IMG/VR virus record: IMGVR_UViG_648276643_000011
Source of the DNA: a virus
Lineage: Duplodnaviria > Heunggongvirae > Uroviricota > Caudoviricetes
Reading direction: 5' to 3' (one strand)
DNA: 33,508 nucleotides
Shown: positions 6,276 to 27,063 of the stretch, in pieces
Numbering within the stretch: position 1 is the first letter of the stretch
How the letters are laid out: the number at the start of each line of letters is the position of its first letter
Program-made: the position numbers and the translations under genes
The notes under the pieces: model-generated
What the model saw: the letters and a program-made list of their open reading frames with translations, nothing else
What the model was told of the DNA's origin: nothing
Databases searched by the model: none

Positions 6276-9098
6276 ATGACGGCAGAGTACATCAGGGACT
6301 GGCAACAACCGCGCCACGCAGTGGGGCGTGAAGGAACGGGGATCCCCGCTCCTGAATCTGCGCTTTCCTCCTGGCTGGATGCCTACCGGGCAGAGAACGA
6401 GCGCCGCCAGGAAATGGCTGATGCGGCGTTCTCCGCCACACCGCTGGGCAACCTGATTAATAAAAGCCTGGACGCACAGGAAAAACAGGACAAAGCCATC
6501 ACACTGGCAGGAGACGCCAGAAAACAGGCACGCGGCGCGGTGGATGAAGCCATGGCCTCGCTGCGCCTGCTGCCGTCCTATTTGCGCGATCCACTTATTC
6601 GTCACCTCTCCTTCCTGCGCAAAAAACAGGAAGCCGATCGCCGGAAAGGCAAAAAGAGCTGGCAGGCAGAACGCTATGCACGCGGAACCCTGCGCAAGAT
6701 ATTCGATCGCATAAACCGCACCGACAGCCGCTGGCTGACACCGGGTTATCGCTCCCTTGCCGGACGCGAACGCCTGGACGATTTGCTTTACCTGCCGCAG
6801 CTCAACAAGCACCAGATACAGACGCTGGCTACCATGACGGCGGCGATGTTCAGCAGCACCTTCGAAAAACTCTGCGATGGTTTTGGCGCGACCGATGGCG
6901 AGCTGACCATGGATGTAACCCTGAAGGCGTATCAGATGCTGGCCCGCATGGCGTTACACCTGCACGCCATGCCTCCACATTATGACGCACTGACAACAGA
7001 CAAAGACCGGAGGAACGAACCGGACACGGAGCTGCTGCCAGGCGCAATCCTTCGCCTGACCTGTGCGGAATGGTGGAAACGCAAACTGTGGCTGTTACGT
7101 TGTGAGTGGCGGGAAGAACAACTTCGCGCCGCCTGTCTGGTTTCCAGAAAAACATCGCCCTATCTGAGCCAGGACGCGTTAAGCGAGTTTCGCGCACAGC
7201 GCGAGAAAACACGCGATTTCCTGAAAAGTTTCATGCTGGAAAACGAAGACGGGTTCACGATTGATCTCGAGACAGTGTATTACGCGGGAGTAAGTAACCC
7301 GGTTCACCGTAAGGCAGAAATGATGGCCACCATGAAGGGGCTGGAACTTCTGGCCGAAGCCCGTGGCGACAAAGCGGTGTTTCTGACTGTCACCTGCCCG
7401 TCAAAATACCACGCCACAACAGAGAACGGTCATCCGAATCCCAAATGGAACGGGGCCACCATGCGCGACTCCAGCGATTACCTGGTTAACACGTTTTTTG
7501 CGGCGGTCCGCAAGAAACTGAACCGCGACGGCCTGCGCTGGTATGGCATCCGCACGGTGGAGCCTCACCATGACGGCACCGTGCACTGGCATATGATGGT
7601 CTTTGCTCATCCGGAAGAAATCGACACCATTGTGTCCCACACCCGTGATATTGCCATTCAGGAAGATCGTCACGAGCTGGGTGATGATATTACCCCACGC
7701 TTTAAGGCGGAGTACGTCGACGGCTCAAAAGGCACACCGACCAGCTACATCGCCACCTACATCGGGAAAAACCTGGACAGCCGTGCCGTGGATGGCATCG
7801 ACCCGAAAACGGGCAAGCCACGCGTTGACCACGAAACCGGAAAATCAATGGCCGAGAGCGTGGAACGCGCCATCGGCTGGGCGCGCCTTCACCGGGTCCG
7901 CCAGTTCCAGTTTTTTGGTATCCCCTCCCGTCAGGTGTGGCGTGAGCTGCGTCGCCTTGCCAGCCAGATGGCACGCAACCCGGAAGGCCCACAACGGCTG
8001 AAGGATGACGCAATGGATGCGGTTCTTGCTGCCGCTGATGCCGGATGTTTTGCCACCTACATAGAGAAACAGGGCGGCGTACTTGTTCCACGCAAGGACT
8101 ACCTGGTTCGCACCGCCTACGACCTCGCAGATGAACTGAATGATTACGGCGAACAGAGCGTACAGATTTACGGGATCTGGTCACCACTCATCGGGGAATC
8201 CTCTCGTGTGTGCACGCATCCGGATAACTGGAAGCTGGTAAGACGTAAACCGGAAACGGAAGACAGCGCCCGCGAAAATGGTTTTGACCTTCAGGGCGGC
8301 CCTGCCGCCCCTTGGACTCGTGGCAATAACTGTCCCCGTGTACAGGAAACGGACAACAACGGGACAGAACAGCCGGAAGAACGGCCAGCACCGTGGCCGC
8401 AGCTCCCTGACGGCGTTGAAGTGAACGAATGGATGCGCTCACTGAAACGGCACGAACGCCGGGCGCTGATGCGTTCGCTTCGTGACAAACAGGCAAAAAA
8501 CAGCAGTGATGAAATGCAGAGCTGGACACAGAGCCGCAAACAGCAGCGGCCTTTGCCTGATAACCACGAATTACTCGCTAAAGAATGGCGGGAGTCTGCT
8601 GAATCTCTCGGCCTGCATATCGGTGAACAACAGATGCAGCACCTGTTACGGGGCGGCAGTCTGTACGTTGACGGCAGCATCATTGCACCGCAGGGATTTG
8701 AAATTATACGCAAACCGGATACCCGCCCGGACAGCCGAATCACGCAGCTCTGGCAGCGCCTGAGCCGTAATCACGGCGTAAGCAGCACGGAGATCCGCCA
8801 TAACCCGGTCGCCAGCTATCTGGCACAGCTGGGGGCATCAGCCCCTGAAGCCGCCGCACGCCTGGCATCCACACTTCAGCAGGACCAGAACACCATGAAA
8901 ACACCCGTTACCGTGCTTTCTGACATGCTGCGCGCCATCCGCGACGCAGAGCACGCACAGAGAATCAGTGAAACCACTGAACGCGCCCGCCGCAAAGCAG
9001 ACCTGCTGCGGGGTGGCCTGACCAGTGGAAACAATAAACAGACAGAAACGGGACTCACGAATCCCGTAAATGAGCAAAAAACGCGCAGCGATATATGA
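6276..9098 (+). CDS. A: Replication initiation protein A (rolling-circle HUH endonuclease, P2 gpA family) with long C-terminal extension
   Basis: 940 aa; HUH-type motif VHWHMMVF and paired catalytic tyrosine motif TSYIATYIGKN as in P2 A; canonical position before the variable locus. Confidence 0.85.
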   Translation: MTAEYIRDWQQPRHAVGREGTGIPAPESALSSWLDAYRAENERRQEMADAAFSATPLGNLINKSLDAQEKQDKAITLAGDARKQARGAVDEAMASLRLLPSYLRDPLIRHLSFLRKKQEADRRKGKKSWQAERYARGTLRKIFDRINRTDSRWLTPGYRSLAGRERLDDLLYLPQLNKHQIQTLATMTAAMFSSTFEKLCDGFGATDGELTMDVTLKAYQMLARMALHLHAMPPHYDALTTDKDRRNEPDTELLPGAILRLTCAEWWKRKLWLLRCEWREEQLRAACLVSRKTSPYLSQDALSEFRAQREKTRDFLKSFMLENEDGFTIDLETVYYAGVSNPVHRKAEMMATMKGLELLAEARGDKAVFLTVTCPSKYHATTENGHPNPKWNGATMRDSSDYLVNTFFAAVRKKLNRDGLRWYGIRTVEPHHDGTVHWHMMVFAHPEEIDTIVSHTRDIAIQEDRHELGDDITPRFKAEYVDGSKGTPTSYIATYIGKNLDSRAVDGIDPKTGKPRVDHETGKSMAESVERAIGWARLHRVRQFQFFGIPSRQVWRELRRLASQMARNPEGPQRLKDDAMDAVLAAADAGCFATYIEKQGGVLVPRKDYLVRTAYDLADELNDYGEQSVQIYGIWSPLIGESSRVCTHPDNWKLVRRKPETEDSARENGFDLQGGPAAPWTRGNNCPRVQETDNNGTEQPEERPAPWPQLPDGVEVNEWMRSLKRHERRALMRSLRDKQAKNSSDEMQSWTQSRKQQRPLPDNHELLAKEWRESAESLGLHIGEQQMQHLLRGGSLYVDGSIIAPQGFEIIRKPDTRPDSRITQLWQRLSRNHGVSSTEIRHNPVASYLAQLGASAPEAAARLASTLQQDQNTMKTPVTVLSDMLRAIRDAEHAQRISETTERARRKADLLRGGLTSGNNKQTETGLTNPVNEQKTRSDI

Positions 9099-9145
9099 AG
9101 CGCGCACAAAACAGGCAAAAACGGGATTTCAGAATCCCGTAAACG
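9046..9145. repeat. Two copies of a 23 bp palindromic iteron (ACGGGA-N8-TCCCGTAAA), candidate ParR binding / centromere-like site
   Basis: Copy 1 at 9046-9073 inside the 3' end of gene A, copy 2 at 9117-9145 about 30 bp upstream of the parM-like start; each has a 6 bp inverted repeat. Confidence 0.4.
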
Positions 9146-9174
9146 ATTAATTAATCAACATAAGGAAAAGCGAC

Positions 9175-10134
9175 ATGAAAATTTGTATCGACGACGGCTC
9201 CACCAACATCAAGCTGGCATGGACTGAGAACGGCGAACGCCGCAACGCCATCAGCCCGAACAGCTTCAAGTCGGAATGGTCTGCGCCGTTCGGTGGCACG
9301 CAGCCCGCGAACTACATGCTTGATGGCGTGCGCTATGGTTTTGATCCTGTCAGCGATCGCTTTGTCCAGACGACCGACACGCAATACCAATACAGCGATG
9401 TGAATGTCATTGCCATTCATCACGCGCTGGTCAAATCAGGCATCACGCCACAGGAGGTGGATGTGGTTGTCACCCTGCCACTGAGCGAGTATTTCGACAC
9501 AAACGCACAGCCGGACATGGCCAACATCAACCGCAAAAAAGCGAACGTTATGCGCCCGGTGGAGTACCAGAACGGCAAAGCATTCACTATCCGTAACGTA
9601 CGGGTTATGCCTGAATCTATTCCGGCTGGCTTTAAAGCACTGGCTGACATGAGTCCGTTTGAATCCCTGCTGATTGTGGATTTAGGCGGAACCACGCTGG
9701 ATGTGGCAAAGGTTCAGGGACAACTGGCAGGTATCAGCCAGGTGTTTTGCGATCCACACGTAGGCGTTTCCCTGATGGCCGATGCAGTACTGTCGGTGAT
9801 GGCCACTAACGGTATGCGTACCAGTCACCACATCGCCAATACCATTATCGAACATCGCCATGATGAAGCTTGGCTGCGCCAGCACATCCACAATGACGCG
9901 CATTACGCCAGCCTGATGGCGGTTATTCGTGAAAAGGAAGAAACACTGAAACAACGCGTGATCCGCGCGCTGGCGGGTTTTTCGGGTTACGGGCGGGTGA
10001 TGGTTGTCGGTGGCGGAGCGGAGATTGTGGCACCCGCTATCCGCGAAGCCTGCGGGGTTAATGCGACTTTCATCGCGGACGGGGTGCCACAGTTTGCTCT
10101 GGTTAATGGGCTGTACGCAATGGACAAGGAGTAA
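9175..10134 (+). CDS. parM: ParM/StbA-family actin-like ATPase
   Basis: 319 aa; N-terminus MKICIDDGSTNIKLAW matches ParM phosphate-1 motif; further ParM-like blocks (YSDVNV.A.HHAL, MPESIPAG, LI.DLGGTTLD, GGGAE) alignable by eye to plasmid R1 ParM (from memory); RBS AAGGA. Confidence 0.8.
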   Translation: MKICIDDGSTNIKLAWTENGERRNAISPNSFKSEWSAPFGGTQPANYMLDGVRYGFDPVSDRFVQTTDTQYQYSDVNVIAIHHALVKSGITPQEVDVVVTLPLSEYFDTNAQPDMANINRKKANVMRPVEYQNGKAFTIRNVRVMPESIPAGFKALADMSPFESLLIVDLGGTTLDVAKVQGQLAGISQVFCDPHVGVSLMADAVLSVMATNGMRTSHHIANTIIEHRHDEAWLRQHIHNDAHYASLMAVIREKEETLKQRVIRALAGFSGYGRVMVVGGGAEIVAPAIREACGVNATFIADGVPQFALVNGLYAMDKE

Positions 10135-10138
10135 ACCA

Positions 10139-10450
10139 ATGACGACACCAACCAGACGGATAAGTTTCTATCTGAAGCCCGCCGCCGTCAAGAACGAAGG
10201 CGAAGCATGCGCCTGGCTGGACAGCCTTACACCAGAAGCCCGTAAAAACGGCCAACGCGTGGCTTTTCTGGCCGGGCTGGCGCTTCTGAAAATGAATCCG
10301 GCAGAGGCTTACCGACTGGCAGCATGGGCTGACGATGAGGCGTTATCAGTGACACAAACCAGGACAGAACGCCCCCTGTCACAGCCAGTACCAACCGCAC
10401 AGATAACCAGTCAGATGGCCGGAAATATCAGGGCGTTATTTCCTGAATAA
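10139..10450 (+). CDS. parR: ParR-like ribbon-helix-helix adaptor
   Basis: 103 aa starting 5 nt after the parM-like stop with RBS AAGGAG; N-terminal RRISFYLKP ... LDSLTPEARKNGQRVAFLAGLAL and C-terminal NIRALFPE resemble R1 ParR as recalled from memory. Confidence 0.6.
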   Translation: MTTPTRRISFYLKPAAVKNEGEACAWLDSLTPEARKNGQRVAFLAGLALLKMNPAEAYRLAAWADDEALSVTQTRTERPLSQPVPTAQITSQMAGNIRALFPE

Positions 10451-10457
10451 CACAACG

Positions 10458-10477
10458 TCAGGGCGAGTTCGCCCTGA
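10458..10477 (+). other. GC-rich perfect hairpin (TCAGGGCGA-GT-TCGCCCTGA) downstream of the parR-like gene
   Basis: 9 bp perfect inverted repeat 8 nt after the stop codon; no U-tract, so a stability element or protein site rather than a classic intrinsic terminator. Confidence 0.4.
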
Positions 10478-10513
10478 TCTCCATCTCAGAACATAAACAA
10501 GAAGAGCGACTTA

Positions 10514-10762
10514 ATGAGCAAAATCAACTATCAGGCATTACGTGAACGTTATTCACCTGCACCAGTACCAAAATGCCCTATTTGCGGCGAAGAAATGTCA
10601 ATTCAGCGAATATCTGGAGCACAGGTTGTTTATGCCTGCTCCAGTTATGGTGATGATGGAGATTTCAAAGTTGGTCGAACTCTTGTCGACGAACATTATG
10701 AAAAATCACGCGTAACAGTGTTGGATGTCGGGGCCCCTGAAGTATTGGCGCTACTTGATTGA
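10514..10762 (+). CDS. Small putative zinc-binding protein; frame stays open past its TGA stop
   Basis: 82 aa with CPICG ... YAC cysteine pattern; the same frame continues for 45 sense codons after the TGA at 10760-10762, with no conventional start codon in that extension. Confidence 0.45.
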   Translation: MSKINYQALRERYSPAPVPKCPICGEEMSIQRISGAQVVYACSSYGDDGDFKVGRTLVDEHYEKSRVTVLDVGAPEVLALLD

Positions 10763-25919: not shown

Positions 25920-26536
25920 TGGCATTCAGAATGAGTGAACAATCACGTACTGTAAAAATTTATAACCTGCTGGCCGGAACTAATGAGTTTATTGGTGAAG
26001 GTGACGCATATATTCCACCTCATACAGGGCTGCCAGCCAATTCTACAGATATCGCCCCACCGGAAATTCCTGCTGGCTTTGTGGCAGTTTTTAACAGTGA
26101 AAATGAATCGTGGAATATTGTTGAAGACCATCGTGGTAAAACGGTCTATGACGTGGCATCGGGGGACGCGTTGTTTATTTCTGAACCCGGACCGCTACCA
26201 GAGAATGTCACCTGGTTGTCGCCAGCAGGGGAGTATCAGAAGTGGGACGGCGTATCCTGGGTGAAGGATGAGGAAGCAGAAAAACTGTTTCGGATACGGG
26301 AAGCGGAAGAGAAAAAGGCAAGGTTGATCCAGGAAGCAACAGATAACATCGCAATTCTGCAGGATGCAGTTAATCTTGAAATAGCAACAAACGAGGAAAA
26401 TTCACAACTGGATTCCTGGAGAAAATACAGAGTATTAGTGAGTAGAATTGACACCAGTACAGCTCCGGATATCGTATGGCCAGAGCTGATGAATCAGGGT
26501 TATGTGCGGGAGGACGAGCAGATAACTTCAGACTGA
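25919..26536 (+). CDS. G: Tail fibre assembly chaperone (gpG-like)
   Basis: 205 aa; ATG overlaps H stop (TAATG); position after H. Confidence 0.8.
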
Positions 26537-27063
26537 AATTTAGTGATGAATGTTGAATCATCTGGAATATCATGCAATACCAATGCATGAGCACCTATTG
26601 TGACATTGTTTCCTATACGCACTTTGCCACCAAGAATGGTGGCATTACAACCAATGGTCACATTATGTCCTATAACAATATCCATATCATTAAAATCACC
26701 ACGCAGCCCAATAGTTACCCCTGGTTTTATTGAACAATTTTCACCGATTGTTACTTTGTGACCGATAACAACACTGTTGAGATAAGAAATATCAAAGCCT
26801 TTCCCTATATTTACAGTTAAAGGGACTGTTACATTATATTTATCAAGAATGAAACGTTCTATTTTCCCCGCAATCTTCCGACAGTATCCGCCTTTATCAA
26901 AAAGGTATTTGGCTATGCGCCACCAAAATAAATAACGAACTCTTCTATGTTTTATTGCGCGAACAATTGCCTTTCGCCAGGAGAAAGGACGCTCGCTACC
27001 GATTACTTCATAGTGAATACAATCTTTAAGTTCATTAATATTCATATCTCTATTATTCAGCAT
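26500..27063 (-). CDS. Hexapeptide-repeat (left-handed beta-helix) acyl/acetyltransferase at the Z/fun variable locus
   Basis: 187 aa; consecutive hexapeptide repeats [21 protein letters not shown] ... [34 protein letters not shown]; about 35 percent GC; convergently overlaps the 3' end of G by 37 bp. Confidence 0.75.

Follow-up and report, generated by a model that had tools for sequence, protein, structure and literature searches.

The parC centromere of plasmid R1 is composed of two sets of five direct 11-bp iterons extending over 159 bp, with the promoter located in a 39-bp core, and has been reported to be strongly curved (PMC2241845). R1 ParR requires at least two iterons, pCW3 carries four 17-bp repeats, and pB171 ParR binds just two 10-bp repeats upstream of parM (PMC9426499). 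An actin-like cassette also resides on SXT/R391, where srpC comprises four 13-bp repeats, both direct and inverted, upstream of a ParM-like gene (PMC4489591); in the Corynebacterium prophage CGP3, AlpAC and its alpS sites serve phage DNA transport and replication after induction (PMC4446434, PMC5539076), and there are reports of ParMRC cassettes on chromosomes that behave in a non-classical way (PMC12270681). Here, a pair of palindromes directly upstream of the parM and parR genes is described in a 33,508-nucleotide (nt) stretch of viral DNA (IMG/VR record IMGVR_UViG_648276643_000011, hereafter the window), which is 95–98% identical to phage P88 and other Xuanwuvirus genomes of the P2 family (Peduoviridae). 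The two palindromes are probably the specific ParR sites of a minimal parC-type centromere belonging to a prophage type II ParMR cassette, a reading based on sequence comparison and held with reasonable, though by no means full, confidence.

When the whole window is searched with up to one mismatch, ACGGGANNNNNNNNTCCCGT occurs at two sites, 9048–9067 and 9121–9140. An earlier note, made from the letters of this DNA, had pointed to two ACGGGA-N8-TCCCGT copies, one in the final codons of gene A and the other just upstream of parM, each followed by AAA. Both copies are real and are the only matches in the window, their placements agree with the coordinates, and the AAA can be read after each, although the distance, given as 71 bp, measures 73 bp from start to start. 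For this motif, 0.04 occurrences are expected against the two seen, and none of 100 dinucleotide-preserving shuffles reached two. Each palindrome is embedded in a direct repeat of 38 nt (9036–9073 and 9109–9146, 82% identical) with the consensus AAACAGRCARAAACGGGAYTnnnnGAATCCCGTAAAnGA, and the arms reach further inward, as GGGAYT-N4-AATCCC; palindrome 2 is a perfect 8+8 dyad around a 4-nt centre, and palindrome 1 carries one mismatch (GGGACT). Palindrome 1 is located 9–16 codons ahead of the gene A stop codon (TGA, 9096–9098), and the parM ATG (9175) lies 34 nt past the end of palindrome 2 and 28 nt past the end of the 38-nt blocks, which span 9036–9146 (~111 bp). No third copy of GGGATT-N4-AATCCC was found anywhere in the 33.5-kb window at up to two mismatches. 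Two inverted iteron pairs is a better name for them than "iterons", the term of the earlier note. The element is made up of the following parts:

9036 to 9073, unstranded: distal 38-nt block (block 1) of direct-repeat family D1, overlapping the last 21 codons of gene A
9050 to 9065, unstranded: palindrome 1 core, GGGACT-CACG-AATCCC, a pair of inverted half-sites spaced 10 bp centre to centre
9074 to 9108, unstranded: 35-bp core between the blocks, holding the gene A stop codon and a CGCGCA...GCGCGCA repeat, with no consensus promoter
9109 to 9146, unstranded: proximal 38-nt block (block 2), in the A–parM intergenic region
9123 to 9138, unstranded: palindrome 2 core, GGGATT-TCAG-AATCCC, a perfect dyad
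9146 to 9158, plus strand: conserved ATTAAT(T/C)AA box that follows palindrome 2 and precedes the ribosome-binding site
9162 to 9167, plus strand: parM Shine–Dalgarno sequence AAGGAA, read directly from the sequence and conserved in relatives

A-tract and AAAC motifs between 9020 and 9175 share a common phase at a 10.5-bp period (R=5.07 of 7, P~0.014 against random positions), in a helical-phase test that was chosen post hoc, after the sequence had been inspected.

The conservation of this region follows the partition genes. In comparison with Hafnia-1, a relative with a 73% identical ParR, the coding tail of gene A is 57–65% identical; from ~9030 onward, block 1 reaches 78%, the core 74%, block 2 (the most conserved non-coding stretch) 87%, and parM 86–87%. 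As the Hafnia-1 gene A stop codon falls within the centre of palindrome 1, the conservation of block 1 does not derive from the A protein. In this alignment, the conserved unit begins at block 1 and continues into parMR. A ParM search additionally identified diverged P2-like prophages in Hafnia (Hafnia-2), Plesiomonas, Serratia, and Enterobacter (ParM 54–63% identical), in each of which parM–parR is situated between gene A and the portal gene. Across a set of four lineages consisting of the E. coli window, Hafnia-1, Hafnia-2, and Plesiomonas, in which ParM identity descends to 62–63%, GGG-N10-CCC pairs (WCCC 12 nt past GGG) set 72–73 bp apart are kept in all four, at these positions relative to the parM ATG:

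E. coli window: distal pair at -125/-113, proximal pair at -52/-40
Hafnia-1: distal pair at -124/-112, proximal pair at -51/-39
Hafnia-2: distal pair at -128/-116, proximal pair at -55/-43
Plesiomonas: distal pair at -131/-119, proximal pair at -59/-47

The invariant columns of the four-way alignment are essentially GGGA/AA.CCC in palindrome 1, CGGG/A.CCC in palindrome 2, GATTAAT.AA, and the ribosome-binding site, while the 35-bp core is poorly conserved and the non-coding DNA around the ATTAAT box has diverged. In Hafnia-2, both palindromes reside in the end of a 167-amino-acid open reading frame (ORF) without similarity to A, and in Enterobacter two genes, one methyltransferase-like and the other a small ORF, intervene between A and the sites; since the sites in both cases adjoin parM without an adjacent A, the element follows parM and not A. 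In the more distant Serratia and Enterobacter prophages (ParM 54–58%), a GGGAAC site is kept at about -117 to -120, with a clear inverted partner, GTTCCC, at -55 in Enterobacter and only a degenerate one in Serratia, and these sites are parts of a long inverted repeat with 14–20-nt arms and a 26–28-bp core. The GGGA site pair is thereby found in six lineages, the Serratia partner being the degenerate one, and ParR keeps its beta-strand (R/K)(I/V)SFYL(K/N)P throughout these six. That relatives with the cassette also hold the repeats, as the reading of the earlier note requires, is borne out by the geometry kept in four lineages, with one rare deletion remnant that has no palindromes as the exception; the repeat is present at the parM loci of related prophages and gives only chance-like matches outside P88-like viral loci.

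Two smaller features of the region may be mentioned here. The core (9080–9106) contains ACGCGCA and GCGCGCA, 20 bp apart, both of which read CGTGCA in Hafnia-1; this coordinated change may be a coincidence, since other relatives alter only one copy. The ATTAAT(T/C)AA box is itself a short palindrome and might be a non-consensus -10 element or a site for another protein.

The genes on either side of the element, together with a further palindrome at the far end of the cassette, are as follows:

6276 to 9098, plus strand: gene A, a P2-type replication endonuclease of 940 amino acids (Pfam Phage_GPA, 1.9e-131), whose unconserved C-terminal tail crosses block 1
9175 to 10134, plus strand: parM, an actin-like segregation ATPase of 319 amino acids (Pfam StbA_N, 3.8e-82; ParM C-terminal domain, 1.3e-68; phrog_691, "partition protein")
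10139 to 10450, plus strand: parR, a putative centromere-binding adaptor of 103 amino acids (Pfam Plasmid_stab_B, 5.5e-24; phrog_2515)
10458 to 10477, unstranded: perfect 8-bp-stem palindrome TCAGGGCGAGTTCGCCCTGA, 8 nt past the parR stop codon, without a clear T-run

ParM is full length, matches the R1 ParM structure 1MWK at 2.3e-92, and is 47–52% identical to plasmid ParMs. The sole significant solved-structure match of the ParR profile is pB171 ParR/StbB (2JD3, E=0.0012), and an AlphaFold2 model of the ParR monomer had a mean pLDDT of 56, too low to support a search by fold, which is unsurprising given that ParR is an obligate dimer. The two ends of ParR are invariant (N-terminal RRISFYLKP and C-terminal NIRALFPE), the linker varies among relatives, and at the C-terminus ParR can be aligned with the matching ends of R1 and IncL ParR. 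The linker (residues ~65–95) is hypervariable, overall ParR identity descending to 42%, between 60 first and 8 last residues that are nearly invariant, and this pattern suggests modular evolution or recombination within parR.

The R1/R100-type comparison locus (L016), whose ParM matches 1MWK over its full length at 7.5e-213, carries A/C-rich iterons of the AAACCCAAAAAC type in two blocks around the promoter, with a block offset of 72 bp; in an IncL cassette, the repeat offsets are 10 and 73 bp. Palindrome 1 of Hafnia-2 has AAACCCAAAAAC as its right arm, a 12-mer identical to that of R1-type parC, and in sequence the phage half-site AAWCCC is similar to the core of the R1 parC iteron. As in R1/R100, the element lies directly upstream of parM–parR, the ParR family (PF10784) is common to both, ParM is 47% identical, and two repeat blocks with an AAWCCC-type core motif surround a central core at an offset of 72–73 bp; A-tracts are in helical phase, and the 35-bp phage core is the positional counterpart of the 39-bp promoter core (PMC2241845). 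In contrast to R1 parC, the phage element has two by two half-sites in inverted pairs over ~111 bp and no detectable promoter, and its distal block lies within the coding sequence of the upstream gene. The inverted iteron pairs, the distal block in upstream coding sequence, the missing promoter signal, and the integrating-phage host are the unusual features of this locus. The features by which a parC is recognised that were found here are the adjoining parM–parR genes, the ParM and ParR families, the repeated short units, and the retention of the repeats in relatives.

Other systems resemble the locus in different respects. With pB171 parC1, it shares the small number of repeats and the ParR structure match (2JD3), but the pB171 repeats are direct and the phage ones inverted, the repeats being compared by description. 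The earlier note had worried that two copies are too few, a concern that loses its weight in view of the two 10-bp repeats bound by pB171 ParR (PMC9426499) and the four repeats of srpC (PMC4489591). Like the phage cassette, srpMRC is an actin-like cassette on a normally chromosomal element, and it acts on the excised circle (PMC4489591); srpMRC differs from it in its carrier, an integrative and conjugative element and not a phage, in its 13-bp repeats, and in SrpR, which shows no similarity to ParR. The AlpAC/alpS system likewise combines a prophage actin-like protein, a DNA-binding adaptor, and cis sites, but its proteins are unrelated at the family level, its host is Gram-positive, and its sites are compared by description.

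A sigma-70-like promoter was not found by a consensus scan of 8800–10700 of the window, nor upstream of parM in Plesiomonas and Hafnia-2, although a weak or non-consensus promoter could escape such a scan; as a control, the scan located TTGACT-16-TAAACT between the R1-type iteron blocks. Two candidates selected manually, TATATG in the core and the ATTAAT past palindrome 2 with a -35 element in the palindrome centre, were rejected, as key consensus positions are missing. The earlier note had proposed a parC-type centromere/operator: the centromere part gains from the comparison with relatives, and the operator part is unsupported, because no sigma-70-like promoter was found. Plus-strand genes only, tightly packed and including A, parM, and parR in this order, extend from ~2.5 kb to 11 kb, so parMR is located at the distal end of an early operon, and with no promoter detected, parMR is probably transcribed mainly by read-through from this operon.

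On the reading that the palindromes are ParR sites, we infer ParR binding, its stoichiometry, and its biological role from the anatomy, the protein families, the linkage to parM, and the conserved geometry, and the following mechanism can be proposed. Each palindrome comprises two inverted iteron cores (GGGAWT/AWTCCC) with centres 10 bp apart, and as this is approximately one helical turn, there would be room for two ParR dimers per palindrome; by analogy with ParR (PMC5016525), Arc, and CopG, two ribbon–helix–helix ParR dimers could occupy each palindrome on one face of the DNA. Because the palindromes are 73 bp (7.0 turns) apart, all four half-sites lie on the same side of the DNA, flanked by in-phase A-tracts, and the 38-nt blocks may provide further, weaker ParR contacts on the AAAC flank. 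Bound ParR would then present its C-terminal tails (NIRALFPE) to the ends of ParM filaments, which would push apart or position circular phage genomes. As substrate, the phage genome would have to be circular and not integrated, a state that follows infection or excision or accompanies replication; such a use of circular or phage DNA would be analogous to that of SXT/R391 (PMC4489591) and CGP3 AlpAC (PMC4446434, PMC5539076). More tentatively, and on balance doubtfully, P88-like phages might carry a working centromere of four inverted ParR half-sites and use ParM filaments on their own circular genome, making them facultative phage-plasmids or, in the manner of CGP3 AlpAC, phages whose replicating DNA is positioned in lytic growth. 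If true, this would be the first R1-family ParR shown to read palindromic rather than direct iterons.

Several observations weigh against a parC-type centromere. All characterised ParRs bind direct repeats, not palindromes (PMC9426499), and the inverted phage arrangement would for this reason be a variation; a full ParR ring contains ~12 dimers (PMC5016525), as opposed to the four half-sites here; and with no promoter found, the classical autoregulatory role of parC cannot be claimed. Among 5426 complete E. coli genomes, 1304 (roughly a quarter, O157:H7 and O55:H7 strains among them) have the A–parM junction; of its 1443 places in these genomes, 1441 are chromosomal, so the need for partition is not obvious. 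ParR relatives of the P88 group (42–84% identity) all keep the N-terminal strand together with the same palindromes, and since both are conserved, no real signal of ParR–palindrome covariation is possible within this group. Among 68 unique P88-like sequences, the palindromes are no more conserved than their flanks, a population comparison that is uninformative because the whole region is ~95–99% identical. Finally, a rare prophage remnant on the E. coli EC7518 chromosome (L019 3330–3545, next to btuC) has parMR without the palindromes; it retains an integrase, a helix-turn-helix repressor, DUF4761, parM, and parR, has no gene A, and its similarity to the window starts directly after palindrome 2.

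Of the alternatives, the one that survives best, though we consider it improbable, is that the palindromes bind a protein other than ParR, such as a phage regulator, a replication factor connected with gene A, or a host dimeric DNA-binding protein. Spaced dyads like ACGGGA-N8-TCCCGT are typical of helix-turn-helix dimers, and the preference of the characterised ParRs for direct repeats is in keeping with this alternative. P2-type origins, as in P2 and 186, sit inside gene A, where palindrome 1 also lies. The sites, however, remain beside parM where unrelated genes separate A, the module boundary falls at block 1 and not within A, the half-site is like the R1 ParR iteron, and the palindrome occurs nowhere else in the prophage window. 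A tie to a P2-type origin or gene A cis-site was not found, the sites staying with parM, although no search for an A nick-site motif was made. When viral contigs were scanned for the exact palindrome, hits beyond P88-like loci had only unrelated flanks, consistent with chance at a level roughly estimated from the 14 specified bases, and to our knowledge the palindrome matches no recognised host-factor consensus.

Rather less probable still is that ParR does bind these sites but that the complex is only regulatory or architectural, or acts against ParMRC plasmids or related phages by incompatibility or exclusion, without segregating the phage genome. The almost exclusively chromosomal state of the prophage, the presence of four half-sites only, and the precedent of non-classical chromosome-encoded ParMRC cassettes (PMC12270681) are compatible with such a role. 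Against it stand the full-length ParM, with its plasmid-like level of identity, and the invariant C-terminal tail of ParR, which aligns with the ParM-binding tail of R1 ParR; there is also no detected promoter to be regulated, and one complete P88-like genome is on record as a 34.5-kb circular extrachromosomal entry. This genome (NZ_CP148288.1, from an E. coli isolate, with A–parM–parR) was deposited as a circular, non-mobilisable "plasmid" of 34,461 bp, and may represent either an extrachromosomal form or the assembly of a replicative form.

The palindromes might also be RNA hairpins, acting either as stem-loops between the A and parM cistrons or, on the minus strand, as tandem terminators against antisense transcription from the late or portal side. 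Each copy can fold on itself, with 8 bp in the stem and 4 nt in the loop (-9 to -11 kcal/mol, z -2.5 to -3.6), and can also pair with the other; on the minus strand, both hairpins precede T-rich runs and were listed as terminator-like, and a T-run is present in Hafnia-1 as well. On the plus strand, however, no U-run follows the hairpins, the minus-strand terminator-like sites are weak in E. coli (4 G–C pairs), the nearest 1.8 kb to the right holds no minus-strand gene, and no Rfam family matches the palindromes. In the four-lineage alignment, the GGG/CCC pairs never vary, whereas pairing at the three inner positions is lost in one or two lineages, with a single double change, no better than in shuffles; Plesiomonas and Hafnia-2 are left with 3–4 pairs and no detected terminator-like site, and nothing would oblige two independent hairpins to have one arm sequence in common and to keep a constant 72–73 bp spacing. 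With inner stem pairs that are lost uncompensated and T-runs that do not persist among relatives, the evidence speaks against a hairpin or terminator role, which was rejected as the main function on the basis of the alignment and the terminator scans of the relatives; it is the least plausible of these explanations, with very little probability left to it.

Beyond the element itself, the left part of the window contains an integrase and a CI-like repressor on the minus strand. The palindrome at 10458–10477 may mark the end of the cassette, and accessory genes seem to have a hotspot directly after parR: of the Serratia and Enterobacter relatives, one carries a HicA/HicB toxin–antitoxin pair just 3' of parR and the other a KAP-family NTPase (L104 4950–5584, L105 4911–6257). 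A hexapeptide-repeat acyltransferase-like gene (26500–27063, minus strand), situated among the tail genes, looks like cargo. A genome-wide ParM scan returned near-identical loci only, and a ParR tblastn search of the phage and plasmid collections found nothing beyond P88-like elements and no intermediates in plasmids or other phages. Two of the phage records (520873 and 503458) bear CP-prefix accessions (CP025923.1 and CP025874.1). A 226-kb contig labelled "Vagococcus sp. WN89Y", a Firmicute (NZ_JBQPOM010000071.1), encodes a ParM 98% identical to that of the E. coli prophage and is probably a contamination or a mislabelled assembly.

Public annotation of these prophages names parM and parR but not the cis site, and no description of the P88-like parMR cassette or its cis site was found in the searchable literature. 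The ~111-bp element offers a defined target for asking what reason an integrating P2-like phage has to retain plasmid-type segregation machinery: it could be stable carriage before integration or after excision, the positioning of replicating DNA, or incompatibility with ParMRC plasmids. As the junction is present in about a quarter of complete E. coli genomes, any effect of the cassette would be widespread, and the range of ParR recognition would extend to inverted iteron pairs and to a very small centromere.

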